The notes under the pieces are model-generated. The model was not told the origin of the DNA. It saw only the letters and a list, made by a program, of their open reading frames with translations, and made no database searches. The position numbers and the translations under genes are program-made. A DNA stretch of 64,000 nucleotides from an uncultured virus (IMG/VR IMGVR_UViG_3300026125_000001) (lineage: Duplodnaviria > Heunggongvirae > Uroviricota > Caudoviricetes). Positions 4,039-62,196 of this stretch are shown here, one piece after another (position 1 is the stretch's first letter; each line of letters opens with the position of its first letter). Where the stretch lies: the IMG/VR virus record IMGVR_UViG_3300026125_000001, one strand, 5' to 3'.

Positions 4039-4299
4039 TTACAACTTCTCCTTTAATATTTCGTCAATCTCTTCCATAGTATAGTCTAAAATACCATGTT
4101 TCTGTAATAGTTCTATACTAACATAAGTCCCTTTTTCCAATCCTTTGTTGAATCCTTCTTCTAAACCTTTATTGAACCCGATCCTGGCTCCAACCCGAGC
4201 ACCATAATGAGAACCTTTCATGTACATAAAATACAAACCGAGTCCAAATACCGCTAGGATAAATGCCCCAAAAAGTTCTTTACTGGTTAATAAATCCAA
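4039..4299 (-). CDS. Hypothetical membrane-anchored protein with GxxxG repeats
   Basis: Hydrophobic N-terminus; GFNKGLEEGFNKGLEKG. Confidence 0.55.
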   Translation of the reverse strand: MDLLTSKELFGAFILAVFGLGLYFMYMKGSHYGARVGARIGFNKGLEEGFNKGLEKGTYVSIELLQKHGILDYTMEEIDEILKEKL

Positions 4300-4684
4300 G
4301 GTATAATTCCTCCTCTAGTTCGTACGCTTCTAATTCCCAAGGAAACTCCCTGTAGTCTTCGCCTTCCCACTTGGCTCCTCGCCAAACTTTTTCCTGTTTC
4401 TTAAGGCTGAGTTCGCCCTTATGGTACTGTTTAACGTGTACCATTTCGTGAAGAACGGTTTTAATAATATCTTCTTCGCTGAGGTCTGAGTTGACTGATA
4501 TTTCGTAGTATTTGCCGCCTACTCCGTGGCAATAACCGTGTTCCCATTCGCCCATCGGTTCTATTTCTACTTCTACGCTGAGTGCTCTAGTCTTAGGTAG
4601 TAATACTGAAATCGCGTAGTAAACTGCCTTTTCTACTTTGCTGGTAATTTCTGTATTGTCTGAATATGCGTAAACTTCTAACAT
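4280..4684 (-). CDS. HExxH zinc metallopeptidase-like early protein
   Basis: TVLHEMVHVKQ and Y..PWELEA motifs. Confidence 0.7.
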   Translation of the reverse strand: MLEVYAYSDNTEITSKVEKAVYYAISVLLPKTRALSVEVEIEPMGEWEHGYCHGVGGKYYEISVNSDLSEEDIIKTVLHEMVHVKQYHKGELSLKKQEKVWRGAKWEGEDYREFPWELEAYELEEELYLGFINQ

Positions 4685-4712
4685 TAAACTTCCCTCAATT
4701 TCAATACTACTT

Positions 4713-4741
4713 AGTATAGTACATACGTTGAGGGAAGTAAA
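4713..4741 (-). promoter_or_regulatory. Early sigma70-like promoter
   Basis: TTTACT-N17-TATACT. Confidence 0.75.
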
Positions 4742-4748
4742 GCGATTT

Positions 4749-5438
4749 TTAAATTAATTTTGCCGCATAGGGGAAGATCTTGTTGATTGCCTTTGCGCAC
4801 TCAATTGCGATCATCTGATGTTCTTTCTGAGTACCGTTGCCAGCCCTCAACTGAATGAAGTGAATCCAGCTGCGGATAGTGCCGTTCATGTAAAGGTATG
4901 AGAGGGTATTACCTTCAGGCAGCAAGGCTCTACGTTGTTCCTTAGCGATACCAAGTTCACGCGCATATCCGTACTCTTTCTTAACAAAGTTTAGTACACG
5001 CTGTTGAATACGCATCCATTCTTCCTGAATCTTAGGGTCGTCAGATACGACTGAGTTCTGACGATTCACCTCGTCCTGCATACGCGCTTCACGATAACAG
5101 AACGCTTCATCAAACTGCTCGAAAGGATCGGCATAACGCTGACTGAACTCTTGGAAAGAGAACGAGCGGTGGCGTAGAATCTGACGAGCAATATCGCGTG
5201 TAGTCACAATCTCAATGTTTGCGCTCACGACTTCTAACGGTGACCAGTGAGAGTGTTTAATCAAATAATTGATCAACTTTTCTGCTGTCTCATTGTTTAC
5301 TTGATTCTTTGGATTAGAAACCCTTGCACAATAAGCGATCAATTCTTGAACACCATCAACCCCCATGTCCTTAAACTCTTCAGTCGCCTGAGAGTAGCTA
5401 ACAAGACGGGCACTAGCTATTTCATTATAACTTTTCAT
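4749..5438 (-). CDS. thyX: Flavin-dependent thymidylate synthase
   Basis: HWSPLE and RHRSFSFQEFSQRY signature. Confidence 0.95.
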   Translation of the reverse strand: MKSYNEIASARLVSYSQATEEFKDMGVDGVQELIAYCARVSNPKNQVNNETAEKLINYLIKHSHWSPLEVVSANIEIVTTRDIARQILRHRSFSFQEFSQRYADPFEQFDEAFCYREARMQDEVNRQNSVVSDDPKIQEEWMRIQQRVLNFVKKEYGYARELGIAKEQRRALLPEGNTLSYLYMNGTIRSWIHFIQLRAGNGTQKEHQMIAIECAKAINKIFPYAAKLI

Positions 5439-8662: not shown

Positions 8663-9594
8663 AAAACCTCACTGTTCTTATAAGCATAATTAAGCGCAGA
8701 ATTTGCCTCAAGCAGTAAAGGTCTTTTCTCATACCAATTGCCAGTTTCTCGGTCAAGCTCTCTCGCCATCATTTCAATTTCGTTTCCGGATATCGGGTAT
8801 CCACTTTTAATCGCATTAAATGCAACTGCTACCATAAATTGATACATCTTATGATACCAACCAGTCTCAGAAATAGCTCGGTATTCAACCAGCATTTTCT
8901 TATTGACAAACGGACAATCATGAATACTGCTCCATTTAAATTTTTCACGGTTGGGAAGTTTAGCTTTACGATGAGCAATAATCTCTTTCTGCATAGCCTC
9001 CGGAAGATTGTCGATGAAGTTGTTTGATTGTTTCTGGATAAAGGGGTGTTTCTTTATCAACTCATCGGGATCAATGTAATCACCGCGATTACTAAAGATG
9101 AAGTTGTTAGCGCCAGCATACTCCGCAGGTATGTAATACATCCGAGACAAATCTTTAGTCTGTTTATCTCCAATTGAATCGAGTTCGGTGTTGAGCGCAA
9201 ACCAGAATGCTTTAATCTTATCCGCTTTAACTCCTGATTTAAGTGGGAAGACCAACCTAAACTTTGGATGATCAGCGCTACTGCTAGCAGTACTGTAACA
9301 GACAAAATCCCAAGAACCAAACTTAGATCTAAGTTCATTTTCTAAGTCTCCCTCGAACTTATGTTCATCAACATCAACAGCAGCCCAACCAGCCCATTCT
9401 ATAACATTCGCATTTCGACGTTTCTCGCCTTCCAAATATACTGCTGGCGAAATTAGTTGAGCAGCCTCTTTACCTGCTAGGGGCTGCGAGGCAAGCTTAT
9501 ACAAGAGTTCTTCGAACTGTTCCCAGGTCTCGAAGTCCATGCGCTTATTTGTCTTATTATCGAAACGATTCTTGAAAATTGTTAGCGAATACAT
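8659..9594 (-). CDS. Archaeo-eukaryotic primase (AEP)-like protein
   Basis: DVD acidic motif, YSTASS..HPKFRLVFPL, KDLSRMYYIP; helical C-terminal domain. Confidence 0.6.
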   Translation of the reverse strand: MYSLTIFKNRFDNKTNKRMDFETWEQFEELLYKLASQPLAGKEAAQLISPAVYLEGEKRRNANVIEWAGWAAVDVDEHKFEGDLENELRSKFGSWDFVCYSTASSSADHPKFRLVFPLKSGVKADKIKAFWFALNTELDSIGDKQTKDLSRMYYIPAEYAGANNFIFSNRGDYIDPDELIKKHPFIQKQSNNFIDNLPEAMQKEIIAHRKAKLPNREKFKWSSIHDCPFVNKKMLVEYRAISETGWYHKMYQFMVAVAFNAIKSGYPISGNEIEMMARELDRETGNWYEKRPLLLEANSALNYAYKNSEVL

Positions 9595-10127
9595 GACATC
9601 ATATACTCCACGACTTTTTGCGTATCCTCAGGAGTCTCGTGTTTGAACTCAACAATACATCCCTCTTCTTCGCCGAATAGGGTTTGCTGATCGCCGAAAG
9701 CCTCTACTATATTTTTACATTTAGTTGCTACTGTTTGGATGAACTTATCACTCTGCTCCGAGCCACGTTCATCGTATCGACGTTGACGTTCTTTATCCGA
9801 GACCGTTAGATGGATTATGACTTTATCTTCAACAGATTCAAAAACGCCTTTGTTATTCAATCTATCACCTTCACCTATTATAACCTCTTCTGGGTTAGAA
9901 GTAAAGTATTCAATTGCTTTTGGCGCGACAGCCATAGACAAACGGTCTGTCCCTGAGAACGTTTCGCCTTCTTCGTATTTCCCGAGCACGCGCACGTTCC
10001 CGCTCACGTGCGTGTCTAGCAGGTCAATCGGACGGTCGGTTTTCCACCCATCGAATCTGCTCATAAATTCTTTCATGATTGTAGACTTACCTGTTCCTGG
10101 CACGCCAATCAAATAAATTAGTTTCAT
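9582..10127 (-). CDS. P-loop kinase, 5-hydroxymethyluridine DNA kinase (5-HMUDK)-like
   Basis: GVPGTGKST, SGTDRLSM, GEGDRL; adjacent to AA:DNA transferase. Confidence 0.8.
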   Translation of the reverse strand: MKLIYLIGVPGTGKSTIMKEFMSRFDGWKTDRPIDLLDTHVSGNVRVLGKYEEGETFSGTDRLSMAVAPKAIEYFTSNPEEVIIGEGDRLNNKGVFESVEDKVIIHLTVSDKERQRRYDERGSEQSDKFIQTVATKCKNIVEAFGDQQTLFGEEEGCIVEFKHETPEDTQKVVEYMMSCIR

Positions 10128-10134
10128 AATATCC

Positions 10135-11148
10135 TCACATAAAAGCATCAAGACCCATTGAGACTGGTTCGTCTTCTTTGAACATCCAGTCTAGTCGGTC
10201 AATATTATTAGTTTCAACGAACTCAGCCATCTTACCCTTTTGGATAACGTTTGAATCATACAGCCTAGCATCAAGAGTTTCTCTACGAGCGTCCCAAAGT
10301 ACACGCCACTCAATACCATACCAACCATCAGATTCAACCTTAGAGATCTCCTCTGCGACCCTGTCATTGTAATACCCCAAGTATCTGCCATGACGCACTC
10401 GGAATATCTTCTTAAATGAACAGAGACAGGTTTCCATTGTAAACGGATTTATCTCAGAAGTCAAGTGTGGGAAGCGACTTTTCATCTCTTCCATTATACT
10501 TTTTGCTTCTGCTTCGAGCCAAGCATATTCCCCAATAGTCTGACGTACATCGTACTGATCATCCTTACCGAGCGCCAGCAATAAGCCATTACGATGAGAG
10601 CGAGAACCGCTAAAGTCATCTAGCAATAAACTATCTGGTACGTTTGGGATATTGGCGGTATGATTTAGGTGCTGTAGAAAGAACCAAGTAGAATAGCGTC
10701 CGAACTTGTAGAACTTATCTTTGACGACTTCATATAGTTTATCGAAATTTTGTTCTTCGTTATCCCCCATATACTGCTCAAATACTTCGCGCTGGGTTTT
10801 ATCTCCAACGAAAGCATGATAGGATTTGAACATATCGGCTAAGTGTCCCTTAGACCATTTTGTGTCCGTTTGGTAGCGGAGACGTTTATAGTTCTCCGTG
10901 TTCCATTGGTTCATTCGGTCATAGGTAGCCAACTCAAAGTCAGGGAACTCATTAATAAGAACCCAAGCGGTTGGTAGGTAGTATGTATTGCCATACAACC
11001 AAGACAGCCAGATACGCTGCTCTGAGTTATGTTCAAATCTATCATTAAGGTAATTGGTCATCCAAACAGCGGGGTCGCAGTCCTTGAATTCCAAGGACCA
11101 CGCATACCACTTAATGAAAGCCTCTCTTCGGTTTTCGTTATAGTTCAT
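10135..11148 (-). CDS. Amino acid:DNA transferase (aGPT-PPlase family)
   Basis: HhH-like FYKFGRYSTWFFLQ, METCLCSFKK, RYLGYY. Confidence 0.8.
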   Translation of the reverse strand: MNYNENRREAFIKWYAWSLEFKDCDPAVWMTNYLNDRFEHNSEQRIWLSWLYGNTYYLPTAWVLINEFPDFELATYDRMNQWNTENYKRLRYQTDTKWSKGHLADMFKSYHAFVGDKTQREVFEQYMGDNEEQNFDKLYEVVKDKFYKFGRYSTWFFLQHLNHTANIPNVPDSLLLDDFSGSRSHRNGLLLALGKDDQYDVRQTIGEYAWLEAEAKSIMEEMKSRFPHLTSEINPFTMETCLCSFKKIFRVRHGRYLGYYNDRVAEEISKVESDGWYGIEWRVLWDARRETLDARLYDSNVIQKGKMAEFVETNNIDRLDWMFKEDEPVSMGLDAFM

Positions 11149-12455
11149 TAAAGATTTACTCGTTTTTGTTTCGTCTCGAATGCTTTAAGAATTCGAATCT
11201 TTATATCGCAATCGGGGTGAACACGTTTTAAAGCTTTATGTAGCTTGGCTTCAGATTCCGTCCAAAGCTCGTATTCATTAATGTTGCCGTGGTGAATAAT
11301 AAGCATTCCATTCCAATTATCCATACCGCCCATCTTGTTAAGAACCCCACCAATACCAGAGTTGTAACAAGCGCCAGAAGATACCGTAATCACTGCCAAA
11401 TCAGGGTTGCGGTCTCTAACAGATTTAGCGATAGCGTCAAGCTCCTTTGAACTGTATTTAATAAAGTTAAGGTCAGCTGTCGCCTTATCTGTTTTTACGT
11501 TAATGACTGCTTTACTGTAGTTAGAAGCGATCTCCCTTAGCGACCAAAGTGGGTAAAAAACTTCTAAACAAGTGTTTTTAAATTTTTCACTTTGTAGGAT
11601 CTCAAGGTTTGGGTCATTATCCCTAAAGTTGTTCGCCCATAAGTTTGTGATAGCTCTCTGGCAATCACGTGAACTATTTGGTTTCTTCAATTTAGGGTTG
11701 TGATTAGCAACGTTACCAAACTTATCCATATTCGACTGGCTATCATTAAACTCCGAAGAATTTAAGTATATAACTGGCGCTGATTGCCAATTAGCTACAT
11801 CTACTGCCCTGGAAGTGTGGTTTCCGTCTAGTATAGTTCGTGTACCGTCTGGGCTGACGCAAACTATAATTGGAGAAACGTTAGTACGAGCCTCTGCTGG
11901 GTCGTCTTCCATCTTCTCCGCAATAGCTTGTACGTGTTTCGGGTCTAATAATACTAAACGAACCTGGTTGTGATCAAATTTACGAATTTCCTCAATATTA
12001 GTTTCAACTACTTGGTATTTCCCCTCTTGGCAGTTTTTCCAAATCCGATTAACTAGTTTTGTATCGATTACATCGTAAGTGTCTTTTGATTCTGTGATTG
12101 GCTCTATACCCTTCTCAACCCAATCTATTCCTCCCTGAATTACGCTCTCTGAAAGTTCCTCCCAACCTTTACAACCTACTCCGCCTCCGTTTGACTTGTT
12201 GTAAAACTGCCCGTTGGTGCGTGCGTTAAAGTGGTGTAGTAGTTTGCTTTCGTATTTTATAGCTTCTTCGGGTGTACCTACAAAAAGGATTGACCTGTGT
12301 AGTAAACCTCTTGACCAATCCCTTTTAAGCTCTTTGTCTTCTGATGAAAATTTGTAGCCGTCGTTGATTTCGCTACTCTTACGAAATCCTACGTATTTCT
12401 TTTTGTTCTGAATATTATTCCAACCGTATACGAACGCTTGATTTTTTTTAGCCAT
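11148..12455 (-). CDS. GIY-YIG-like N-terminal domain fused to ParB/Srx-like domain
   Basis: FVYGW..KKYVG..Y.FSS..E..FYNKSNGG; PIIV..ILDGNHT. Confidence 0.6.
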   Translation of the reverse strand: MAKKNQAFVYGWNNIQNKKKYVGFRKSSEINDGYKFSSEDKELKRDWSRGLLHRSILFVGTPEEAIKYESKLLHHFNARTNGQFYNKSNGGGVGCKGWEELSESVIQGGIDWVEKGIEPITESKDTYDVIDTKLVNRIWKNCQEGKYQVVETNIEEIRKFDHNQVRLVLLDPKHVQAIAEKMEDDPAEARTNVSPIIVCVSPDGTRTILDGNHTSRAVDVANWQSAPVIYLNSSEFNDSQSNMDKFGNVANHNPKLKKPNSSRDCQRAITNLWANNFRDNDPNLEILQSEKFKNTCLEVFYPLWSLREIASNYSKAVINVKTDKATADLNFIKYSSKELDAIAKSVRDRNPDLAVITVSSGACYNSGIGGVLNKMGGMDNWNGMLIIHHGNINEYELWTESEAKLHKALKRVHPDCDIKIRILKAFETKQKRVNL

Positions 12456-12484
12456 GATATAGTCCTCGATCTCAATACAAGGTA

Positions 12485-12513
12485 ATTATAGGTGGATCTG
12501 GGATAAAAGTAAA
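12485..12513 (-). promoter_or_regulatory. Early promoter
   Basis: TTTACT-N17-TATAAT. Confidence 0.8.
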
Positions 12514-12543
12514 GGAAATTATTATATCAAATAGGAATAAGGA

Positions 12544-13101
12544 TCAGAAGAAATCTTCTAACCCTTTTGGTGATTCAAGAAAGACTTCGACGCAACCGCC
12601 TTTGCCTTTCTTGTGTACTGCGGAGTAGATGACAGGATCGTCTAGCTGATAATAGCTATCAGCGAAAGTATTGTTTATGCGGAAGATAGATAGCTGGCAG
12701 CCACTTTTCTGTTTACCTTGGAAAGTAAAGCCGATCTTCTCGTAGAACTTAATAGCAGGGATTTCAGAGGACACACGGAAGTATGTCGCCTGCCCCTTTA
12801 CTCGCTCAAGAGAATCTTCGCAAAGGATTCGGGCAACACCCTTACCCCTATGAGCCGCAAACGTATGGAGGAGTTGTAGGTTTGCTACTTTTGGTGAACG
12901 TTTAGACACAGTCGTTATGATAGCGCCAGCAAGCTGGTCGCCATCCCATAACCCTATACACTTATCCCATAACCCCTGCATGTTCGCCTTCGCAATAAAG
13001 GTATTGGCGAACTTATCCGCAGGGTCATCAGATATAGCGGAGGTAAACTCCTCCGCTGTCGTGCTACGCAACTTCAATGTATGCTCGCTGTTTTTTGCCA
13101 C
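12544..13101 (-). CDS. GNAT acetyltransferase (start uncertain, possibly TTG 13077)
   Basis: HRGKGVA acetyl-CoA motif, AIKFYEKIGF. Confidence 0.85.
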   Translation of the reverse strand: MAKNSEHTLKLRSTTAEEFTSAISDDPADKFANTFIAKANMQGLWDKCIGLWDGDQLAGAIITTVSKRSPKVANLQLLHTFAAHRGKGVARILCEDSLERVKGQATYFRVSSEIPAIKFYEKIGFTFQGKQKSGCQLSIFRINNTFADSYYQLDDPVIYSAVHKKGKGGCVEVFLESPKGLEDFF

Positions 13102-13936
13102 GGTCTTTGTCCCACTTTGTCTTTTGGTGCCCTATCCACTGATTCAAGTCCCACTGGAATGGCGGAAACTCATAGTCGCCATCAGCCAAAATTTCTTTAA
13201 CGCTCGGACCATCGTTTAGGGCAGCATCAATAAACGCCTCAACGAAACGGAACATAGATTCCATATGCTTACGTTCTGTGGTAGCCCGAAAACACCGAAA
13301 CTCGATTGTTCCAGTATGTTTTAGGCAGTAGGTGTTAATCGCGTAACGGAAAGGGCGACCCATCGAAACACCGTCCTTGCCAGCAGCATGGAGCTTGATG
13401 AAGTGATCAAAGTCTTTAGCCAGATTAATAATATTGTCAGCCATGTAATCAGGCATCTGGCGTCCACCGTCATATTTCATATACATGGTAGCGCCTTTCG
13501 CTTTCTTCATGGAAGCCGCTTCATGGAATAGACCGCAGTTCTCTACAACGTCAGCTTGGTTCGCTTTAATGTATTTGATCAAACGCTTAAGGGCATCTAG
13601 ATCTTTAGTTAGCTCAGGCACATACACGTGTAGATGCGAATGGCTTAGGCAGTTTGAAGTAGGCTCGCATCCCTGATCAGTAAACCACTGTTTAATCTCT
13701 TGGATTCGATCTACCTGTTCTTCCCAGGTTTTGGTCGGTTTAGTATTGACCTCTCCCCCGAACGGAGGGTCTTCGCCGAGCGGATCACAAGCAACGTATT
13801 TGTATGGTGGACGCAGGTTTACTACGTCAGTCTCTGAATATTCCCAAGAACCTAGATGCTCCGGAATCTCTAGGCGACGGTCAATATCGCCCCACTCAAT
13901 CTCGTAGCCCCAAGTAAAATCATCTTTATTGTACAT
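13064..13936 (-). CDS. Putative amidoligase (COOH-NH2 ligase, Amidoligase_2-like)
   Basis: WGYEIE, GEVN, HLHV, RY.IN, TIEFR. Confidence 0.75.
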   Translation of the reverse strand: MYNKDDFTWGYEIEWGDIDRRLEIPEHLGSWEYSETDVVNLRPPYKYVACDPLGEDPPFGGEVNTKPTKTWEEQVDRIQEIKQWFTDQGCEPTSNCLSHSHLHVYVPELTKDLDALKRLIKYIKANQADVVENCGLFHEAASMKKAKGATMYMKYDGGRQMPDYMADNIINLAKDFDHFIKLHAAGKDGVSMGRPFRYAINTYCLKHTGTIEFRCFRATTERKHMESMFRFVEAFIDAALNDGPSVKEILADGDYEFPPFQWDLNQWIGHQKTKWDKDRGKKQRAYIEVA

Positions 13937-13944
13937 AATGTATC

Positions 13945-14559
13945 CTATGGTTGTAAGTCTATACCAGCAAAACTAACTCGGTTTTTTGATTTAGTTTTGA
14001 ATTGACTTCTACTTATAATGTCAGAAGTCGAAGCAAATATACGACCGTGTTCAATGTCAGCACACCATAATGGTCTTTTACCATTACGCATATATTCTAT
14101 TCCATTTACTGTCAAAAGTAAAGCGGAAATTGAAGAATTTGCCCACTCATTTAAAGAAGGGCGATGGAAAAGAAGTTCGGTGTCGTTAGCGGTTTCGCAT
14201 TTGATTCCATAGAGTCTATACCAATTCTCCGGAAGTTCTTGCGAAATAACACCGTTATGAACAACAGATAACTTTTCGTCAGCAATAGGTTGATTAAAAC
14301 GCAAGTCAGAAGTACTGTACCGACAATGAGCGATAGCTGTTATGTTACCGTTCTCGTCAACCCAGTCGATTGGTGGATGATGTTTTATAAATTCAGATGC
14401 CTCAACAGCTTCCTTTATCGTATGTATCTTACCCTCTTTTAGGAAAGACACGCCAGTAGCGTGCCTCCCTCGGATTTGTGATTCAAAGAATAGGGTGCGG
14501 ATAGCACTTATATCATCTCTTGTTACGTTTTTTAATTCAAATCCCATTACTGCGCACAT
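13945..14559 (-). CDS. Class II (Ntn) glutamine amidotransferase
   Basis: Start re-called at MCAVMG (N-terminal Cys, GAGGA SD); RGRHATG, HCRYST, HNG, NDTE. Confidence 0.85.
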   Translation of the reverse strand: MCAVMGFELKNVTRDDISAIRTLFFESQIRGRHATGVSFLKEGKIHTIKEAVEASEFIKHHPPIDWVDENGNITAIAHCRYSTSDLRFNQPIADEKLSVVHNGVISQELPENWYRLYGIKCETANDTELLFHRPSLNEWANSSISALLLTVNGIEYMRNGKRPLWCADIEHGRIFASTSDIISRSQFKTKSKNRVSFAGIDLQP

Positions 14560-14613
14560 TAAAAGAAATCCTCTAAACCACATGTCAGGGCTAACCCCTG
14601 AAAATCGCAAAAT

Positions 14614-14621
14614 TATAAATA
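14614..14621 (+). promoter_or_regulatory. Late promoter for HNH endonuclease
   Basis: TATAAATA on plus strand upstream of the only plus-strand gene. Confidence 0.75.
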
Positions 14622-14661
14622 AAGGTATGGTTCGCGGGTCGCCCCAACCACTCTATCCGTT

Positions 14662-14690
14662 ATTATACTACAACTTAAGGAGAAAGTAAA
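14662..14690 (-). promoter_or_regulatory. Early promoter overlapping the HNH RBS, facing the GATase
   Basis: TTTACT-N17-TATAAT. Confidence 0.75.
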
Positions 14691-15430
14691 TGGACAGCAA
14701 ACTTATTTATTCAATATTAGCATCAAAACCTCACAACAAACATTACATGTCAAGATACATTCGGTTAATAGAGGCTTACAATGACTCTACCGAAGGCGAG
14801 AAGCACCACATATGTCCAAAGGCTAAGGATATGTTCCCAGAATACACAAACTTAGTGGAAAACCCTTGGAACAAAATATTGCTCCCAACTAGGGCGCATA
14901 GGTTAGCCCACTTAATACTCGCTAAAGCGTTTCCTGATGTATTATCGCAATCGTATTCGGCAGTCAAGTTCTTTAGAAAAGATATAAACTCTAAATTGTA
15001 CGAATCTTATGTCAGTAGGAAAAATTCTCTACATTCTAAAAGGATGTCCGGAGAGAATAATCCATTCTTCGGCAAAACTCACAATGAAGAATCTAAATCT
15101 AAAATGGGTTGGGCTGCCTACGACGAAGAGACAAGAAAACAAAGATTATCAAATAAAAACCTATCTGAAGAAGCAAGGGATAAATTTTCAGAAAGCGGTA
15201 AATTAAACTACCATCATATGCACACAGAAGAAGCTAGGGAAACACACAAGCAATCTATGAAAGATTTCTATAATGACAAAGATAAACGTTTAGCCCGAAT
15301 ACAGAAATATAGAGGAACTTTCAACAGCAGAGAAGATATAACTTGCCCTCATTGCGGAGTGGTATCCAAACACAAAGGTAACATGAATAGATACCACTTC
15401 GACAATTGTAAAACCCTAAGAGAAAAATGA
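14690..15430 (+). mobile_element. Free-standing HNH homing endonuclease (Mob-like; NUMOD3 and Zn finger)
   Basis: EKHHICP..N..H..AH; GENNPFFGKTH; CPHC..HFDNC; inverted orientation. Confidence 0.85.
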
Positions 15431-16864
15431 TTCTAAATCATTAGAGTTGTTGAAATGATCCCATAACCCTGGTTGGTTTTCTTTCATCAACTCTTCGCCT
15501 CCATGTTCTAAAAGGTATTGATACCATTCTTCTGAATTATCGTTCATAAAACCAGGACTCACGCCATTCCAACGCTCTTTCCATAACGGATGTTCTTTGT
15601 TGGTTCGACGATCGTCAACAAACTTACGACGCAGCGCCTCATAATCCCAAGAACCTAGTTGTAACATATCCTCACGGAAGTAGAAAACAAGGGACATACG
15701 AAGTAGGTCTTCTTCGCCAGAGTCAGGGGCTTCAATAGGCTGATTGCCGTGAATTATTCGCATATTATCAATAAGGAGTAGATCTCCTGGTCGAACATCA
15801 ATAGCTGCGCGAACTTCCGGAGCAGTAAGGTATCCGCCCTTCCATGATTTACCTTTCGGAGCAATTACAGTAAGGTTAGAGAAACCCTCATTTAATGAAC
15901 CAGCATCCTTATGACAAGCCATACGAGCATTTCGGTCAGACTGAGTTGTATTGACTGTAACGGTCGTAAAGGTAGTATCCTCGCCAATCAAGAATTTAGG
16001 GTCGATACTGTCAGCACATCTTTTTTGGTACGCATAACGCTGCGGAAGTAAGCGAGCAAACTCTTGGTCGAGTTTACGGGCAAACGGGTAGCACTTCTCA
16101 AAGTCTTCTCGGTTATGCTCTACATGGCTAGTAGCACGACCATAAGGGATACGAGGGTAGCGTCCATAGAAGCCAGTGATTCCGGACCACAGCGGAGTAG
16201 CGTAGGAAGTTCCGCTGATCATCGTATCGCGAACGTGTATAGCATATTCCCGAGCTTCATCTACCGGAAGGGAACGGAGTTTGGCTAGGCACTGATCAAA
16301 GAAATTGCGGTAATCCTCATATTCTTTCTCGACCTTTTGAACCAACCAAACTTCGCCACGTGTTTCGTACTGCTTGGTTTCATGTTTCTTGATAATGTCC
16401 TCAACTGGGTCAGTACCCATAACGTTCTGCGGAGAACCCTTAGCAAAGAAGTCCAGGATATCGCGCTGGAACGGAGTAACCCATTCGCGACCCTGACTTG
16501 TTTCGGCTCGAGGACCAGCAGCCATACCACGGTTGTTAGACTCAGCAGCAGCGCTGTAAAGACCAGCATAAGCACCGTCTTGTTCTTCCTGCGTGAATAC
16601 GTTCTTACGGAATTTGAACGCAACACGGTCTTCACCTATACAGTTGATACATTGCTTATCGCAGTCAGTAGAAGCGACTACATCACACGATGGCGGTAGA
16701 TAAAAGTCAGCGTCTTTGTCAATGAGAATATCGAATGAATCCTCATCAGCGTATTTGCCGATGAGGTTCTCTTGGTCTTCAACGAAGAGGGCAACATAAA
16801 CATCTTGCCCTTCGTCACCGATATACTTTTGCCATTGCCGACCGTTAATTGTAACTTTTTCCAT
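15416..16864 (-). CDS. TET/JBP-like 2OG-Fe(II) dioxygenase (5-methylpyrimidine oxidase)
   Basis: TFTTVTVN, HKDAG (HxD), HGN, RMSLVFYFRE. Confidence 0.8.
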   Translation of the reverse strand: MEKVTINGRQWQKYIGDEGQDVYVALFVEDQENLIGKYADEDSFDILIDKDADFYLPPSCDVVASTDCDKQCINCIGEDRVAFKFRKNVFTQEEQDGAYAGLYSAAAESNNRGMAAGPRAETSQGREWVTPFQRDILDFFAKGSPQNVMGTDPVEDIIKKHETKQYETRGEVWLVQKVEKEYEDYRNFFDQCLAKLRSLPVDEAREYAIHVRDTMISGTSYATPLWSGITGFYGRYPRIPYGRATSHVEHNREDFEKCYPFARKLDQEFARLLPQRYAYQKRCADSIDPKFLIGEDTTFTTVTVNTTQSDRNARMACHKDAGSLNEGFSNLTVIAPKGKSWKGGYLTAPEVRAAIDVRPGDLLLIDNMRIIHGNQPIEAPDSGEEDLLRMSLVFYFREDMLQLGSWDYEALRRKFVDDRRTNKEHPLWKERWNGVSPGFMNDNSEEWYQYLLEHGGEELMKENQPGLWDHFNNSNDLESFFS

Positions 16865-29797: not shown

Positions 29798-30076
29798 TTA
29801 TCCAGCAGGGTTATATGGATTCAACCTTTTCTGTTGGATACGGTACATAATCAAGTAACCAAGAAGGTCAAGGATTACGTCTTCGCCTGCGTCGCTCCCA
29901 CGGCTCAGTCTACTTAGCTTGTCGTCGATACGAACATTCAGCTGCTCTAGCACATCTGCCTTTGAAAAGATGCGTACAGGATTTAGAGCAGAATCGCCAT
30001 ACGCTTTGTTTTTAGATATTAGAAGGGAGGCGATCTCATCGACCACCTCACTAACTTCATTCTCAAATGTCATCAA
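29798..30076 (-). CDS. DUF1599/Nmad1-like all-alpha nucleotide pyrophosphatase-fold protein
   Basis: KN..YGDS, RIDDKLSR, ED...DL.GY. Confidence 0.7.
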   Translation of the reverse strand: MMTFENEVSEVVDEIASLLISKNKAYGDSALNPVRIFSKADVLEQLNVRIDDKLSRLSRGSDAGEDVILDLLGYLIMYRIQQKRLNPYNPAG

Positions 30077-33620: not shown

Positions 33621-33899
33621 TTATAACTGAATTGCCTTTCTGGTTACTATAACTGAAGCGTTCTTGCTTAGGTCTACTAAACCTTTGTAACGCTCTTTGA
33701 GTTCCTTACCTAACTCCTGCGCTCGCGCTTCGCTGAATGGTTCTACTTCTATTTCGTTGAGGTACGCTATTTCTTCGTAAAGCTTCTTGCTGATCGCCTG
33801 ACCTATGCGTAGGTGTGTTAATCCTGGGTCGCTGATTAATACTACTTCGCTTGGCTGAAAACCTTGGTATGCTGCGCGCTCGGTAAAATTAACTTTCAT
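33621..33899 (-). CDS. Hypothetical early protein (coding strand TG-free)
   Basis: GAGGAG SD, own early promoter. Confidence 0.75.
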   Translation of the reverse strand: MKVNFTERAAYQGFQPSEVVLISDPGLTHLRIGQAISKKLYEEIAYLNEIEVEPFSEARAQELGKELKERYKGLVDLSKNASVIVTRKAIQL

Positions 33900-33926
33900 T
33901 TGACTCTCCTCAATTTCAATACATGT

Positions 33927-33955
33927 ATTATAGATGATGAAATGAAGGAAGTAAA
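33927..33955 (-). promoter_or_regulatory. Early promoter
   Basis: TTTACT-N17-TATAAT. Confidence 0.8.
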
Positions 33956-40741: not shown

Positions 40742-42052
40742 TTACGCAGCAGCGTCAAGGATGTTAGCAACTTTGAAAGAACGGTAGTAAACGTTGTTAC
40801 GAGCGTTAGCAGAAAGCGCACCAGTGAATGGGTTAGCAATCATGCCGTAACGAGTCTTGAAGCCGATCTTAGGCTGGAAAGTATTTTCACCAACCGCACG
40901 AACCATAGTGAGTGGTACGTATGGGCAGTAGAACATACCAGCGTCGTATGCGTTAGAACCTTTGTAACCAACAGTTACGTAGTTAACACCAGCGTATGGG
41001 TCAAGGTAAACTTTCATACCACCAGTGATAGTACCAACGAAAGTAGTACCAGTAACGTCAGAAGCAACGCCAGCATTGCCAGAAAGCGCTGGAGTGTTGT
41101 CTAGCATGCCAGAAGCTGAAAGTACAGCAGCAACGTCAGCAGATACTAGGATGAAGTTACCTTTACCGCGACGAGTTTCGATAGCGATCTGGTTAGCTTC
41201 ACGCTGTAGGTGAACTAGAAGACCTTTGTAACGCTCTACAGACCAACGACCATCAGCATCAGCAGCAAGGTCGAAAGTACCTTTAACAGCGATTTCAGCC
41301 TGCTGTGCGCCAAGGATAGAACGGCTGTTGATAGTACGAACTACTTCACGGTTGATTTCAGCAAGGATCTCAGCAGAAAGGATAGTAGCAAGTTCAGACT
41401 CAGCGTCGAGACCGTGAACAGCTTTAAGATCCTGAGCAAGTTCCATAGTGTACTCAGCTTTCAATGCACGAGTCTTAGCTTCAACAGAAGTTTTCTCGAT
41501 GCTGAAAGACATCTCAGCGAAATCTGGACCCTGACCGTCACCTAGAGCTTCACCAGCTGCAGTAGACATACCAGTACCTGGGAAGTAATCGCCCACGTCA
41601 GGAGTACCGTCAGTATCAGCTGCGAACGGATCGTTAGAAGAAGTAGCAGTAGCAGAAGCGCCAGAGAAAGCAGAATTTGCTTCGTTGAATAGAGCTTCAG
41701 CACCCTGATTACCGTAACGAGATTTCATTGCGAACACAAGACCAGTAGGACCAGTCATTGGCTGTACGCCACAAAGATCGTAAGCAATAAGGTTAGGCAT
41801 TGCACGACGAACCAAAGAGATTAGGATTGGATCCCAAGTGTCGATAGCGCCAGTACCAGCGTTGCCGATGTTGTTAGTTGGAGCAGCTTCAGAAAGGTAA
41901 CGAGCTTGGCCACGCTCTTCAGCAAGTGCACGCTCAGTGTTTTCTAGAAGAACTGCAGTTACCGCTTTACGGTGTGCGTCAGCGAAAGCAGGAGCTTCAG
42001 CAGCTTCCATTACAGGAGACCATTTCTCCATAAGTTGTTCAGATTTAAACAT
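40742..42052 (-). CDS. 23: Major capsid protein gp23
   Basis: LIAYDLCGVQPMTGPTGL, ELAQDLKAVHG, FQPKIGFKTRYG. Confidence 0.98.
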   Translation of the reverse strand: MFKSEQLMEKWSPVMEAAEAPAFADAHRKAVTAVLLENTERALAEERGQARYLSEAAPTNNIGNAGTGAIDTWDPILISLVRRAMPNLIAYDLCGVQPMTGPTGLVFAMKSRYGNQGAEALFNEANSAFSGASATATSSNDPFAADTDGTPDVGDYFPGTGMSTAAGEALGDGQGPDFAEMSFSIEKTSVEAKTRALKAEYTMELAQDLKAVHGLDAESELATILSAEILAEINREVVRTINSRSILGAQQAEIAVKGTFDLAADADGRWSVERYKGLLVHLQREANQIAIETRRGKGNFILVSADVAAVLSASGMLDNTPALSGNAGVASDVTGTTFVGTITGGMKVYLDPYAGVNYVTVGYKGSNAYDAGMFYCPYVPLTMVRAVGENTFQPKIGFKTRYGMIANPFTGALSANARNNVYYRSFKVANILDAAA

Positions 42053-42076
42053 TTTTGTTATTCCTCGATCAATCGA

Positions 42077-43063
42077 TTAGTGAGATTTTTTAATTGCAGC
42101 AAGGTAAGCAGACATACGAGCATCAACAACTTTTTCTTCAGTTGATTCTGTTAGTTCTTCTTCCTGTGGAGCAGCAACTTTAGTCTTAAAGTAAGATTCT
42201 TTGATGGTTTCAACTTTCTCAGCGAAAGAATCAGCATCAGTAAAATCTACGTCTTCAACTAGTGATTTAAGTTTTTCAGCCTGAGCCTGTGAAAGACCTT
42301 CAGCAGCTTCAACGATGATAGCTTGACGGGTTAGTTCAGCAACAGCTTCAGATAGCTCGAGAGCTTCTTCAACTTTAGCATTGTAACCTTCTTCAAGTTC
42401 TTCAATTTTCTGAGCAAGCTCTTCAACTAGATCAGCCTTACCTTCTGGTACAGCGATGTAGTGATCAGCGAATACACCGTGAAGTGCGCCCATGAAAGAT
42501 TCTGCGATTTCAGAACGTAGACCAGTTTCAACTGCTAGTTTATTTTCTTCCATCCAAGACTCAACAACGTAGTTAAGGTATGAATCAACCTTTTCTACTA
42601 GTTCAGCTTTGATGGTAGCAGTCTGCTCTTCTAGCTGTTCAGCGTAAGATTCTTCTAGACGCTCAACGTGCTCAGCAAGTTTAGACTTGAGAGCAGCTTC
42701 AAAGATAACACCAGCTTTGTTGCGGAAACCTTCAGACAAAGTAGCTTCGTCTTCTACAAGTGCGTCAAGGTCTTCAGCGAACGTATCTTCTTTTACGTAA
42801 GAATCGGTTGCCATTTTGCCTTTAGCGCCTTTTGGTAGAGCTTTAGCTTTTTTGTTCGCAGAAGCTTTAACAGCAGCAGTCGTAGCGGCAGCAGCTTCAG
42901 TGCTGTCTTTGTCTACAGACTCTTCCATTTCGTCTTCTTCGTCTTCGTCTTCATCTTCTTCTTCAGCTAATTCAGCTGCAGCTTCCAAAAGTTCCTCGTC
43001 AGTAACTTCAACGTCCTCAACGAGTTCATCTTGGAGCTGTTCTTCAACGTCATATTTAGACAT
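42077..43063 (-). CDS. 22: Prohead core scaffold gp22
   Basis: Acidic coiled coil, IFEAA, VDSYL.YVVE.W. Confidence 0.9.
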   Translation of the reverse strand: MSKYDVEEQLQDELVEDVEVTDEELLEAAAELAEEEDEDEDEEDEMEESVDKDSTEAAAATTAAVKASANKKAKALPKGAKGKMATDSYVKEDTFAEDLDALVEDEATLSEGFRNKAGVIFEAALKSKLAEHVERLEESYAEQLEEQTATIKAELVEKVDSYLNYVVESWMEENKLAVETGLRSEIAESFMGALHGVFADHYIAVPEGKADLVEELAQKIEELEEGYNAKVEEALELSEAVAELTRQAIIVEAAEGLSQAQAEKLKSLVEDVDFTDADSFAEKVETIKESYFKTKVAAPQEEELTESTEEKVVDARMSAYLAAIKKSH

Positions 43064-55901: not shown

Positions 55902-57497
55902 TTAACCTCCTACTAGTTCGCTGAACTCAACGCCAGTACGAGTAGCGATGAAGTTAAGAGTAATGAAGTTGATTGAACGCGCAGGTTTGACATAGATGTC
56001 AGCCACAAAGCGGTTGGTATCAATAACTTCTGGTGTATTGTTAGTCTCATCGCACACAACTTTAAAGTCGTACATGCCTCGGCGACCTTTGATGTCGCGT
56101 AGGTATGGCTCAACCAATGCTACGAACTGACCGCGAGTGAATTCGTCGTTTAGTTCGAATAGAGTTGATTTAGCAGCAGTAGAGATTGCTTTTTCGATTG
56201 TATTGAATAGGCGACGAACGTTGATACGGTCAAACGCAGAAGCGCGAGTAAGAGAAGTCTTATCTCCGTATAGAACGATACCTTCACCTGGGAAAGATAC
56301 GATTGGGTTAACACGTTTCTTGTACAGGCTATCGCGAGCAGCATTGTCAGGATTGAAAGCAATCTTAACAACAGTGTTTAGGCGACCACGGTTAAAGCCA
56401 GCTGGAGAGAACCATGGGTCAGCAACTTCGTCTGTACGAGCACATAGACCAGCAATGTGACCAGAAGCTGGAATCCAACGGTAGTCATCATTGTACTTGT
56501 CGTAAACGTACAAAGCGGTTGAGTCCATTACACCGTAAGAAGATGAATCAACTTCGTTAGCCCAAGAAAGGACATTTGCCAAAGCAGTAGAAGAAGAAAC
56601 GCCAACAGTTTCGGCGGTTGGAGGAGAAACAAATGCCACAGCGTCCTTACGGAATTCTGCAACAGCGATAACAGTATCAGCATCAGCAGCGTCAAAATCA
56701 CCACCAATGATTAGGTTACATTCATACACTTCAACATCTTTGAACACTTCGTAAGCAGCAGCAAGATCGTTAGAACCGCCCGCAGCACCGTCAGCGCCAT
56801 GATTAAGAGTTGTCTCACCAGAAGCCAAGCTTGCGTTCACATAAACGTAGCTTGATCTTTCGTTGATAACATATACGAAGTAATTGTTTGTTCCGTCTGC
56901 TAGTTTATCACCTTTGGTATCGCCCAAGAAAGCATAAGTTTCTAGGACAGAGCCCGCAGTTCCGGTAAATTCGCCGCCAGCATCGATAACAGCAACGTGC
57001 ATTTCGCCAGCGCCAGGAGCACCGTCAAAGCGAGAAGCTACTGTTTTCTGAAGGGCAGTGCCAGCTTCGTAAGTGGTGAAGTTTGTTGAATCGAGTACGT
57101 GAACAGCAATGCTATTACCAAGAACGCCTTGGTAGCGAGCAGTTACAGTATCAGTGAAAACTACGCCTTCAGCAGACTTTTCGTTAGGGTATTCTGCGCC
57201 AGCAGCACCGCTTGTAGCGTTGTATGCAGGCGTACCAGTGTCAGCAGTGTAACGGACAACGCGAAGATCAGAACCGTATTTTAGGAACTGAGCAGCGTTT
57301 AGGAAATCTTTATACATGGAGTCGGTCGGAGTACCGAATAGAGCAGCAAGTTGTTTTTCATTTGAAACTTGCGTCGGTACAAAAGCCGGACCCCAACGAA
57401 AGTTACCAGCGATCGCACCGATAGATGTCGATACCGCAGGCACTACGTTAGTGAGGTCAATTTCCTTAACCTCAATGCCAGGAGATACTAATGCCAT
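55902..57497 (-). CDS. 18: Tail sheath protein gp18
   Basis: SPGIEVKE.D, WFSPAG.NRG, FDRINVRRLF. Confidence 0.97.
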   Translation of the reverse strand: MALVSPGIEVKEIDLTNVVPAVSTSIGAIAGNFRWGPAFVPTQVSNEKQLAALFGTPTDSMYKDFLNAAQFLKYGSDLRVVRYTADTGTPAYNATSGAAGAEYPNEKSAEGVVFTDTVTARYQGVLGNSIAVHVLDSTNFTTYEAGTALQKTVASRFDGAPGAGEMHVAVIDAGGEFTGTAGSVLETYAFLGDTKGDKLADGTNNYFVYVINERSSYVYVNASLASGETTLNHGADGAAGGSNDLAAAYEVFKDVEVYECNLIIGGDFDAADADTVIAVAEFRKDAVAFVSPPTAETVGVSSSTALANVLSWANEVDSSSYGVMDSTALYVYDKYNDDYRWIPASGHIAGLCARTDEVADPWFSPAGFNRGRLNTVVKIAFNPDNAARDSLYKKRVNPIVSFPGEGIVLYGDKTSLTRASAFDRINVRRLFNTIEKAISTAAKSTLFELNDEFTRGQFVALVEPYLRDIKGRRGMYDFKVVCDETNNTPEVIDTNRFVADIYVKPARSINFITLNFIATRTGVEFSELVGG

Positions 57498-57557
57498 TTG
57501 TTTTTCCTCATGGAGTTAATAAGAGATTCATAACAAGTAAATTTTATCAATTACAAT

Positions 57558-57565
57558 TATTTATA
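57558..57565 (-). promoter_or_regulatory. Late promoter for gp18
   Basis: Exact TATAAATA. Confidence 0.8.
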
Positions 57566-57568
57566 AAT

Positions 57569-59185
57569 TTACCAATCTCTGGAGCTTTTTATAGTCCCGT
57601 CCCACATTTGTTCTTCAAATGATTGGATCGGTTCTTCGTATGAGTCGCCGCCTATAACGCCAAAGGGAACAACATCATCTTCAATCATACGGATATTCTC
57701 TGCGTGGATCATATCACGGATGTTGATATCAGTTAAGTTTAGGAAATAAGGAGTGGTTGCGAAATATCCAAACATCACCAAGTTCATAACCAAATCGTCG
57801 TGGTTTCCTGGAGTCGCCTCGTAGGAAGAACCTCTTGCCTCAAATTGAGATAATTCTATTATAGTCTCTGCGTCGACAATAGTCAACTTATCTTCTTCAA
57901 TTAAGTCTTTTAGATTGGAGCAGCCGATGCGCTTGACCTTCTTGGTCATGTTAACACCAAGGGCATTTGCCTTTACTGCCGACTCTACGAATACGTTTTC
58001 ATACTCAAGTTCATAGTAGAGTCCGTTACAAACAACAGAGCCTTGGTCATTAGATTCGATTATGACATAAGCATCGTTGTAGGTTTTGGCGTACTTGTAT
58101 ATATGGTCAGGGAATAACAAAGGCGATATAAGGTTATCTCTGAAAGTCGCCACCTGTTTAAAAGGTCTACTTGTTATATCAATAATATTGAATGTAGAAT
58201 AGTCTTGCCCTCGCCCTTTGGCCACGTCGACAAACATCATATAATTGTGCTCGGGGTTTGGCTTTTCGTACACGCAAACTGAGCCTTGACGATAAACAGG
58301 ATTATCAGCCTTTAGGGATAATAGTTTGTCGCCTGAGATTAGCGTGTTACCAGCGCCCAAGAAAGAGTTACCGAACTCCTGCATAAACTGCAGTTCTGAC
58401 GTGTTCTCGATTGTCTGTTTCTTCCATTCTTCATCTCGCCCAGGAACGTCCCACCAGTCTACGCGGAATGGTTTGTAAGAGTTAGTACCCTGAACTGCGC
58501 CCTCGTATATCTTGTGGAATGTGTTGCCCAAACCATTGGCGGTAGAAGTAACAATTACCCTTGAAGACTTACCAGAAGATACAACAGGGTAGGTTGAGGT
58601 GTAGAACTCAACGTCATTCTCAACGAACGCAAACTCGTCTAGGAACAGTAGGTTAATAGACAAACCACGAATAGAAGAACCTGACGTAGCAGCCGCTAAT
58701 ATCTTCGAGTTGTTGCTGAACTCAATAGAACCTTTGTTGAGCGACTTACATCCTGGCTGTAGAAAGAAAGGTAAGTTCTCGAGCATCAACGTGATGCGCG
58801 AAAGCATCTCCCTAGCAGTTGCGCCTTTGTTCGCAAGGATAGCGATATTCTTTTCAGAATGGAATAATGCGTACCAAAGTAGATAAGCACAAGAACTGAT
58901 AGACTTACCAGATTGTCGACAAGCCAAAACGATACTAAATCTGTTGGAATTAAAATGGTCAAACATCCTCTCTTGATAAGGGTAAAGGTTAAAGGGGACC
59001 AAACCCTTATCTAGATGTATTACTTTTAGATATGTGCGCGCGAAGTAAGCGGGATCCTTCATACACTTAGCGTATTCAGTAATCTCTTCTTTGGTAAAGT
59101 TTGTTACAACGCCATCGCGCTTTACATGAGGGTTGCCGAGATAGTGGTGCTCTCTTGGTGGAACATTAGTCGGTATCTGGCTCAA
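57569..59185 (-). CDS. 17: Terminase large subunit gp17
   Basis: RQSGKS, LDEFAF, DVAKGRGQDYS, HDDLVM. Confidence 0.97.
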   Translation of the reverse strand: MSQIPTNVPPREHHYLGNPHVKRDGVVTNFTKEEITEYAKCMKDPAYFARTYLKVIHLDKGLVPFNLYPYQERMFDHFNSNRFSIVLACRQSGKSISSCAYLLWYALFHSEKNIAILANKGATAREMLSRITLMLENLPFFLQPGCKSLNKGSIEFSNNSKILAAATSGSSIRGLSINLLFLDEFAFVENDVEFYTSTYPVVSSGKSSRVIVTSTANGLGNTFHKIYEGAVQGTNSYKPFRVDWWDVPGRDEEWKKQTIENTSELQFMQEFGNSFLGAGNTLISGDKLLSLKADNPVYRQGSVCVYEKPNPEHNYMMFVDVAKGRGQDYSTFNIIDITSRPFKQVATFRDNLISPLLFPDHIYKYAKTYNDAYVIIESNDQGSVVCNGLYYELEYENVFVESAVKANALGVNMTKKVKRIGCSNLKDLIEEDKLTIVDAETIIELSQFEARGSSYEATPGNHDDLVMNLVMFGYFATTPYFLNLTDINIRDMIHAENIRMIEDDVVPFGVIGGDSYEEPIQSFEEQMWDGTIKSSRDW

Positions 59186-59510: not shown

Positions 59511-59511
59511 G

Positions 59512-61385: not shown

Positions 61386-61389
61386 TGTA

Positions 61390-62160: not shown

Positions 62161-62187
62161 GTTGGTACCTGTTATGATAGTTTACTA

Positions 62188-62195
62188 TATTTATA
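62188..62195 (-). promoter_or_regulatory. Late promoter for gp13
   Basis: Exact TATAAATA. Confidence 0.8.
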
Positions 62196-62196
62196 A

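Follow-up and report, generated by a model that had tools for sequence, protein, structure and literature searches.

Three promoter-proximal genes of an uncultured aquatic T4-like phage are recoded such that one DNA strand of each avoids TG, and avoids TC where the next base is C, G or T (TC[CGT]), with TCA exempt from the rule. These genes lie in the window analysed here, which covers the opening 64 kb of a linear virus record 77,938 bases long (the 78-kb contig). By inspection of their translations, the genes of the window are of the T4-like phage type, and nearly all occupy the minus strand. Sequence comparisons indicate that the clearing is probably linked to the phage's own DNA modification. 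More tentatively, we propose that thymine-hypermodifying phages may write hemi-modified safe harbours, wherein an open reading frame (ORF) is recoded so that one strand or the other lacks the modification context and the gene is spared the cost of the phage's own chemistry, a generalization that we regard as somewhat more doubtful than credible.

The most completely analysed case is a gene encoding a 134-aa HExxH zincin-like predicted metallopeptidase (positions 4280–4684, minus strand), whose coding strand carries almost no avoidable TG or TC[CGT]. The gene lies directly after thyX (4749–5438, minus strand; Pfam Thy1, E = 3e-37) and overlaps a downstream 86-aa ORF that begins with TTG (4039–4299, minus strand). 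An earlier note, made from the sequence alone, had claimed that eight of nine TG dinucleotides on the coding strand are forced by the protein, that the ninth belongs to the probable start codon of the next gene and that nine of 11 TC dinucleotides are TCA. An exact recount bears out each of these counts: three TG occur in ATG codons, four in TGG, one in TGC and one at a CTT|GGA codon junction, where the TTG (4299–4297) starts the overlapping ORF with a GAGGAGG sequence 9 nt before it, and TCA makes up 9 of the 11 TC. Only this one TG is avoidable. Among the residues behind the eight forced TG, M44, W47 and W106 are at positions that are not conserved in the protein family.

The synonymous-shuffle check suggested in the earlier note supports the reality of this avoidance, in that none of 20,000 draws fell as low as the observed values for either motif. 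With the start codon excluded and genome codon usage applied, TG occurs 8 times against a mean of 27.2 (lowest draw 14), and TC[CGT] occurs twice against 11.9 (lowest draw 3). Codon bias alone was ruled out as the cause because TG at codon junctions is still depleted when the gene's own codons are permuted (1 versus 6.1, p = 0.0014). The template strand of the gene is not cleared, as CA (equivalent to TG on the template) occurs 26 times versus 19 expected. Neighbouring thyX lies outside the rule (TG 46 versus 40), as the note had stated, and the overlapping 86-aa ORF is not cleared either (TG 14 versus 15). An assembly error was also rejected, since contigs from three sequencing runs, which are possibly the source of this DNA, span the gene without a listed difference. 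The IMG/VR copies of the peptidase have 100% protein identity.

The same rule recurs 28.9 kb away in a gene for an unrelated protein, a 92-aa orphan (33621–33899, minus strand) that has no TG after the start codon (0 versus 12.6) and no TC[CGT] (0 versus 10.8). Homologue searches with this protein matched only itself, and Atlas gave nothing usable. No close relative of either the peptidase or the 92-aa gene is among the matches listed in the collections searched, and for the peptidase no relative above about 45% identity is among the matches listed in two collection scans. A third gene, missed in the earlier note, encodes a protein with GIY-YIG-like and ParB-fold parts (11148–12455, minus strand). 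Its clearing is partial (TG 52 versus 80.5) and is strongest in codons 1–120. When the contig was scanned on both strands in 150-base windows, three stretches this low were seen, all on the minus strand, which correspond to 4280–4684, 33621–33899 and the 5′ part of 11148–12455.

A single penalty on TG plus TC[CGT] brings all 16 dinucleotide counts of the peptidase gene to within 1.3 SD. The excess of CA is a by-product of this one rule, and selection for CA or for template-strand marks was rejected on that basis. When five cleared stretches are pooled, TCA is retained (37 versus 27.6), in contrast to TCC (2 versus 13.9), TCG (2 versus 19.7) and TCT (1 versus 26.1), and TGA is nearly eliminated (2 versus 27.3). 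For TC, only the 3′ neighbour matters. Two other candidate causes were set aside. The folding energy of the peptidase gene (−81.7) is near that of the constrained model (−77.7, SD 5.8), which speaks against avoidance of RNA structure, and CC occurs at a normal frequency (12 versus 9), which speaks against avoidance of Rho-type YC sites. Clearing extends from the start to the stop of the ORF, and sites reappear soon after the stop codon. Promoter spacers and leaders have an ordinary density of sites and are not cleared.

All three cleared genes are located directly behind sigma70-type promoters matching TTTACT-N17-TA[CT]A[AC]T. The promoter in front of the peptidase gene is TTTACT-N17-TATACT (4713–4741, minus strand), and the others are at 33927–33955 for the 92-aa gene and 12485–12513 for the ParB-like gene. 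The avoidance is real, is common to unrelated proteins and occurs directly behind sigma70-type promoters. This promoter position is not sufficient for clearing, because 9 of 12 contig genes with such a promoter within 90 bases are not cleared. On the strength of the promoter consensus, the peptidase gene may be expressed early. A leader motif, GTATTGARATYGAGG, follows each of the three promoters (4693–4707 on the minus strand, 33908–33922 and 12464–12478) and is found in the window only before the cleared genes. It has three exact occurrences; three matches appeared in 3 of 100 shuffles when two mismatches were allowed. The leader contains two TG, and the retention of sites in the leaders could, as a guess, reflect exchange among near-identical promoter boxes. 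The leader was rejected as the cause of clearing, as four promoters of other phages carry the same leader and none of them has a cleared gene.

The promoter region of the peptidase gene also carries an inverted repeat (4688–4738) that links the promoter spacer to the ribosome-binding site, and its plus strand folded as RNA yields −23.6 kcal/mol (z = −5.3). In PeSL-type promoter cassettes of T4-like phages, a promoter and a stem-loop recur together as a mobile unit; in the window, promoter and leader are common to three loci, and one hairpin was seen. At the other end of the gene, a perfect TTTACT-N17-TATAAT sequence (4279–4307, plus strand) faces the peptidase gene in antisense orientation, so that it and the sense promoter converge; it is the sole plus-strand match among 19 in the 78-kb contig. 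No ORF of at least 40 aa follows on that strand, and an antisense RNA is possible.

The partly cleared third gene belongs to a seven-gene cassette (9582–16864) consisting of a kinase, an amino acid:DNA transferase (AADT), the ParB-like gene itself, a GNAT acetyltransferase, an amidoligase-like gene, a class II glutamine amidotransferase (GATase) and a dioxygenase. The dioxygenase is a TET/JBP-family protein predicted to act on T (15416–16864, minus strand; Pfam Tet_JBP, PF12851, E = 1.3e-12, above cut-off). Matches to ADDT for the AADT (10135–11148, minus strand; E = 9e-22), to Ploopntkinase3 for a P-loop kinase of the 5-hmU DNA kinase type (9582–10151, minus strand; E = 6e-17) and to GATase_6 are likewise above the Pfam cut-off. 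The GNAT, amidoligase-like and GATase genes span 12544–14610 (minus strand), and the amidoligase match is weak (E = 3e-4). A lone plus-strand ORF of 246 aa (14690–15430) splits the cassette between the GATase and dioxygenase genes; it has, by eye, the look of a homing endonuclease, and its TG count is low (25 versus 35, z = −3.1). Elsewhere in the window, a further protein of 92 aa (29798–30076, minus strand) presumably resembles nucleotide-modification-associated domain 1.

The N-terminus of the partly cleared gene product (residues 2–117) matches a PHROG homing endonuclease family. The protein gives no Pfam match, but its middle portion has a ParB fold: all seven profile matches are to ParB, Noc or SbnI (E = 0.02–0.24). 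At the level of fold, all ten matches at E ≤ 0.001 are to ParB or Noc, with a best E of 6e-5. Judged by its gene content, the cassette layout is that of the ParB-dependent T-dioxygenase clusters. In PMC13229309, clade C1 clusters combine a dioxygenase, a ParB-fold partner, GATase, P-loop kinase and AADT as the window does, and the most thoroughly studied ParB-dependent T-dioxygenase, 5mYOX176, prefers NTG, then NTA, in assays with oligonucleotides in which activity was low. The NTG preference corresponds to the motif cleared here. The ParB-fold protein of the window differs in having the extra GIY-YIG-like N-terminus ('GIY' is absent from the main text of PMC13229309), and recoded genes are not mentioned in the parts of that paper examined. 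As a separate observation, the cassette ParB-fold genes of the window and of three related loci (L185 1355–2653, L275 7742–9028 and L088 8698–9975) have a GIY-YIG-like N-terminus and are 23–51% identical, versus 60–90% for their neighbours.

Published data on hypermodified thymine in other phages agree with the cleared motif. Such bases have been reported mainly at TG, less at TC and rarely at TT or TA (PMC13458397, PMC6449724), and the kinase and AADT chemistry is described in PMC8989533. Phages M6, ViI, phiW-14 and SH-Ab 15599 thus have the TG > TC context and AADT/kinase chemistry in common with the window phage (PMC6449724, PMC8989533, PMC13458397). The phages of PMC8989533 are described as making 5-hmU at the nucleotide-pool stage, whereas the window phage has thyX plus a dioxygenase. 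For the TCA exemption, we found no published data in the literature examined. A cultured phage in which the pathway could be studied is Caulobacter phage Cr30, which carries a 37%-identical dioxygenase (annotated as an SNF2 repair protein), AADT and kinase at 56426–60681 and has no cleared gene.

We scanned loci drawn from AADT and dioxygenase alignments, twelve larger cassette records (G001, G002 and G013–G022, of which G019 and G020 show only the dioxygenase) and seven cultured phages. Controls were six records (two complete, none with an AADT match) plus peptidase loci. With the motif fixed from the window beforehand, a gene qualified if its discretionary ratio was at most 0.3. This threshold was reached by 2 of 93 window genes and by 6 of 3,027 genes in other phages carrying the dioxygenase or AADT, compared with none of 3,567 control genes, some of which are on fragments that may derive from cassette carriers. 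None of 1,264 genes of the seven cultured phages, which include ViI, M6, phiW-14 and SH-Ab 15599, qualified. The difference between cassette phages and controls has a Fisher p value of 0.009, and that from cultured phages 0.19, with genes treated as independent even though they are related. A strand-blind window scan gave a similar picture: genic stretches with at most one site occur only in cassette material, and the minimum in controls and in most cultured-phage stretches is two sites.

Three of the six additional genes are clean on the coding strand, as in the window (L288, L311 and a 41-aa gene of G014). The other three are clean on the template strand (L275, L266 and G001 128–310), and their motif is the exact reverse complement of that in the window. 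These three were chosen on CA alone, before the trinucleotide check, and were then found to lack AGA, CGA and GGA and to retain TGA. Read on their template strands, TG occurs 2 times versus 24.8, TC[CGT] 6 versus 30.2 and TCA 30 versus 17.3, and the trinucleotide profile is like that of the coding strand of the window genes (Spearman 0.71). One further gene (L252) was left uncounted because it has no CA but retains AGA. The earlier note had described the rule as one of the coding strand, which holds for the window genes and fails in these three related phages, where it is the template strand that is clean. The two strand types occur close together: in the kinase tree, the template-clean L275 sits next to the coding-clean L311. 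The cleared 71-aa ORF of L311 has no ATG; in the stretch 12640–12660, a GAGGAG sequence falls shortly after the beginning of the called TTG frame and precedes an in-frame ATC by 7 bases, and from this arrangement a rare start codon without TG is possible.

The cassette itself is not sufficient for cleared genes. G001 has all seven cassette genes (26–90% identity), yet its syntenic peptidase (TG 37 versus 32) and ParB-like (84 versus 74) genes are uncleared, and no gene qualifies in 10 of the 12 larger cassette records, among them the complete G013. Among ParB-like genes, that of L185 is 23–27% identical to the window gene and has a cleared coding strand (65 versus 109), and the 51%-identical orthologue in L275 is not cleared. 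Relative to this orthologue, 20 of the 21 avoidable sites in codons 1–240 have been lost in the window gene by mixed changes.

Several partial cases were seen in the same scan. Two long adjacent genes in each of G001 (60172–63522), L266 (15492–18961) and L273 (14164–17643) are moderately poor in CA plus [ACG]GA (z = −5 to −6.7) and rich in TG plus TC[CGT], which amounts to a partial template-strand version of the rule. A 279-aa gene of Vibrio phage 1.255.O (125938–126777), with CA plus [ACG]GA at 48 versus 84 (ratio 0.43) and 36 TGA, may be a partial case on the template strand; this phage is cultured and carries an AADT. The L266 contig has a dioxygenase match and no AADT match. There (10263–14638) and in L273 (10328–13340), the genes after the dioxygenase are not those for AADT and kinase but look by eye like genes for nucleotide-sugar enzymes, and the motif is still cleared or depleted. 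Motif loss without AADT and kinase genes after the dioxygenase suggests that the dioxygenase may set the sequence context.

The mirror-image motif with the same exemption points to a rule that concerns duplex DNA rather than mRNA or an RNA factor. We propose that selection keeps one strand of a cleared gene free of the hypermodified thymine predicted from the phage's cassette. First, the cassette would mark both strands of virion DNA at the T of TG and TC[CGT]; the T of TCA would stay unmarked, perhaps since the mark goes to the TGA opposite. Second, the cost would require marks on both strands together, as suggested by the observation that either strand being clean suffices, and clearing either strand would remove it. 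The agent would be an enzyme of the host that either excises modified thymine or cuts the DNA there; lesions confined to one strand would produce no double-strand break, and the clean strand would serve as the repair template. Third, recoding would pay off only for genes required during an attack on the entering genome, and the cleared genes would then likely be counter-defence or takeover genes.

Host enzymes of the kind required by this scheme have been described. Brig2 is a glycosylase directed against modified thymine (10.1101/2025.10.29.685425), and END nucleases also act against modified thymine and are countered by phage inhibitors (PMC12191111). Such enzymes are patchily spread, which would explain recoding in some lineages only. 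Several considerations count against the host-enzyme reading: a break elsewhere in the genome would do harm anyway, the protection of a ParB-like cassette gene is left without a reason, promoters and leaders are uncleared, eight forced TG persist in the peptidase gene, three of them at non-conserved positions, and most cassette phages have no such gene, nor do the seven cultured phages, four of which have published TG/TC modification. We judge the whole chain, host enzyme included, to be finely balanced and tilted slightly towards doubt.

The main rival to the host-enzyme chain is a direct block of transcription, wherein host RNA polymerase is slowed by bulky thymine, most severely when both strands are marked, and one-strand clearing would serve genes that are read from the entering genome. 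The same motif and cassette evidence fits this explanation, as does the location of the three window genes directly behind consensus promoters with one leader in common. Biochemical data cut both ways. Bulky or charged uracil modifications in the promoter template strand were reported to inhibit T7 polymerase, which suits the template-clean genes, yet the non-template strand tolerated modifications in the same study (PMC11550810) and it is the non-template strand that is cleared in the window. Moreover, Escherichia coli and Bacillus subtilis polymerases were reported to be affected by major-groove groups at initiation and not at elongation (PMC4838386), whereas the promoters and leaders here are uncleared. 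Given also that ViI, M6, phiW-14 and SH-Ab 15599 manage without cleared genes and that most promoter-proximal genes of the contig (9/12) are uncleared, we consider a polymerase block unlikely. PMC6449724 lists the effect of modified T on transcription among matters that remain to be studied.

Transcription-linked mutational erosion is improbable. In this scheme, modified T would be highly mutable on one strand of strongly transcribed genes until only protein-forced sites remain. The cleared genes have indeed diverged fast relative to G001 (26% identity for the ParB-like protein and 30% for the peptidase, versus 60–90% for neighbours), and the ParB-like gene (11148–12455) displays a gradient from its 5′ end. 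However, clearing ends at the stop codon even though the next gene overlaps or adjoins, the same type of promoter also precedes genes that are untouched, and related phages exhibit both strand directions. The TG losses relative to the 51%-identical orthologue are also mixed (five to AG, six to CG, three to TA and one to TT), although changes may be saturated at this level of identity.

There is only a small chance that the message is what is protected, with a host or phage factor cutting or modifying RNA at UG and UC[CGU] and cleared messages lacking its site. In the window phage, clearing affects the coding strand alone and is confined to the ORF, which is what such a factor would leave behind, and a dinucleotide-specific mRNA modifier does exist in CmdT, which acts on GA (10.1101/2024.02.24.581662). 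The template-clean genes speak against it, as they keep or gain UG in the message (TG 18 versus 15 in L275 and 22 versus 14 in L266), and an exact reverse complement with the same exemption would need two RNA factors of mirrored specificity. Furthermore, the motif is a DNA-modification context found only with the cassette, and the leaders retain UG.

A similarly small chance attaches to an antisense switch, in which the 4279–4307 promoter drives an antisense RNA templated by the cleared coding strand. Antisense transcription would win on modified incoming DNA and silence the peptidase, and sense transcription would win on unmodified new DNA. Under this idea the template strand would again be the sensitive one, as is usually expected (PMC11550810). 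It draws on the perfect consensus promoter that borders the cleared stretch, the only plus-strand match among 19, on the strong hairpin at the far end of the peptidase gene and on the presence of such a promoter in 1 of 152 peptidase genes, namely the focal one. Against this, no antisense promoter matching at least 10 of 12 positions occurs at the 92-aa gene, L288 or L311, and one 10/12 match is inside the ParB-like gene. The hexamers at 4279–4307 overlap the stop codon and the spacer between the Shine–Dalgarno sequence and start codon of the next gene, which are AT-rich anyway, and perfect gene-opposing promoters without clearing exist in G001, G002 and a control.

Import of ORFs from a donor with a strand-wide TG/TC bias, whose composition was then retained, would explain why clearing is bounded by the ORF and why no close relative of the peptidase or 92-aa gene is among the matches listed, but it is very improbable given that the peptidase gene follows thyX as in G001, that the ParB-like gene sits in the usual cassette slot, that the distant ParB-like genes are cleared in two lineages while the closer orthologue is not, and that the strand-blind scan revealed no donor with such a bias.

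The pattern resembles two known kinds of motif avoidance in part. Phage genomes avoid restriction sites, and in the first-entering DNA of T5 and T7 a short motif is purged from DNA that must work first. In that case, the motif is the recognition site of a host enzyme, and a continuous region is free of it on both strands. Here, the motif is the context in which the phage is predicted to place its own mark, and the loss affects one strand only, in three scattered single ORFs of the window. Among mRNA toxins, MazF acts on ACA in mRNA. Messages without an mRNA-toxin site, such as GA for CmdT, would exhibit a strand-specific, gene-bounded loss of a very short motif as seen here (10.1101/2024.02.24.581662), but this kind of escape cannot yield the reverse-complement version on template strands, and in other phages it is the template strand, instead of the message strand, that is clean in 3 of the 6 instances. 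In the open-licence PMC and bioRxiv literature, we found no published description of single-strand loss of a modification context from phage genes; PMC13716836 was rejected as a prior description because it concerns transposon TA sites. Cassettes of this type have been published and the peptidases belong to a widespread family; what is new is the recoding.

The earlier identification of the flagged gene product as an HExxH peptidase holds in the form of a predicted zincin metallopeptidase, based on motif conservation and the modelled fold. The HEMVH motif (residues 79–83; 4436–4450, minus strand) is invariant in 48 of 48 aligned sequences, with E117, E119 and A120 further on; H79, E80, H83, E117 and E119 are each invariant in all 48. 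In the structure model (pLDDT 95), HExxH is on a helix comprising residues 70–88. Matches to zincin folds, ranked by VIA Z, include YbeY (11.2; rmsd 2.7, 109 aligned residues), the ERAP1 catalytic domain (10.8) and PprI (8.5), followed by Wss1 (7.7), SPRTN (6.8) and CapP (6.4). Foldseek gave no match to the model at E ≤ 0.001, and Pfam gave SprT-like and DUF6782 only below cut-off. The SprT-like score (PF10263) is 19.6 bits versus a cut-off of 25.6, and IrrE/ImmA (PF06114) gave no match at E ≤ 0.01. The Atlas neighbours of the peptidase include an M78 cluster (TM 0.82), so the resemblance stands. The protein has the HExxH motif on a zincin fold in common with small zincins (IrrE/PprI, CapP and Wss1/SPRTN) and with the YbeY and M1 aminopeptidase folds; it differs from the small zincins in being a lone 134-aa domain of a family that is phage-only in the Atlas clusters listed.

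Clearing is not a trait of this peptidase family, which is found too in phages without the cassette. Among 152 distinct peptidase genes from the loci found, focal gene included, none of the 151 homologues is cleared, and the median discretionary-TG ratio is 1.12 compared with 0.05 for the focal gene. The next-lowest ratio (0.42) belongs to a gene that had been extracted in truncated form; its full frame contains 26 TG. Four other peptidase genes with cassette genes in the same locus have ratios of 0.87 to 1.21. The amino acid composition of the focal protein differs as well: Met, Trp and Cys make up 5.3% of residues versus a family median of 8.5%, and four positions that are often M or C in the family hold other residues.

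The cleared genes provide a natural experiment on the cost of DNA hypermodification to a phage and make a precise prediction for each of three templates, namely one with a clean coding strand, one with a clean template strand and one with both strands marked. The pattern also predicts a sequence context, with TCA exempt, for an uncharacterised enzyme set and offers an inexpensive way to pick out candidate counter-defence genes from orphan ORFs. If the safe-harbour reading is true, the signature would point directly to genes that counter modification-directed defence, and the context of the enzymes (TG and TC[CGT], not TCA) would be readable from sequence alone.

Opposed site pairs were also assessed genome-wide. 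TGCA is depleted in the window phage (observed/expected (O/E) 0.43, rank 2 of 256 and thus the second rarest 4-mer), M6 (0.34), phiW-14 (0.63) and ViI (0.75), compared with 0.80–1.07 in six controls; it is rare in Zemanar too. No depletion is seen in SH-Ab 15599, Cr30 and Vibrio phage 1.255.O (0.92–0.98), and depletion is slight in several cassette genomes (0.80–0.90). TGCA is also a restriction palindrome, and non-palindromic TGGA is barely depleted in the window phage (0.92). In keeping with a cost that requires marks on both strands, opposed sites 3 bp apart are scarce in ViI and four cassette genomes (0.78–0.88), compared with 0.96–0.99 in four controls; opposite-strand sites 7–25 bp apart display no consistent depletion. 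TGCA values of 0.31–0.43 characterize the whole contig, G010, G020 and G022, with no cassette gene found in the 59 kb of G010 examined. TGCA scarcity may be a marker for thymine-modifying phages.

Other compositional biases were encountered during these scans. TA-poor genes of phiW-14, M6 and Cr30 are mostly long, and TA is self-complementary. Genes of the capsid and scaffold type (40742–43063 in the window and their equivalents in T4-like genomes) avoid GG, including at codon junctions, in cassette phages and controls alike. In G014, the rarest 4-mers are AGCC, AGCT and GGCT, with AGCT practically absent (O/E 0.00), which suggests that this phage avoids RGCY.
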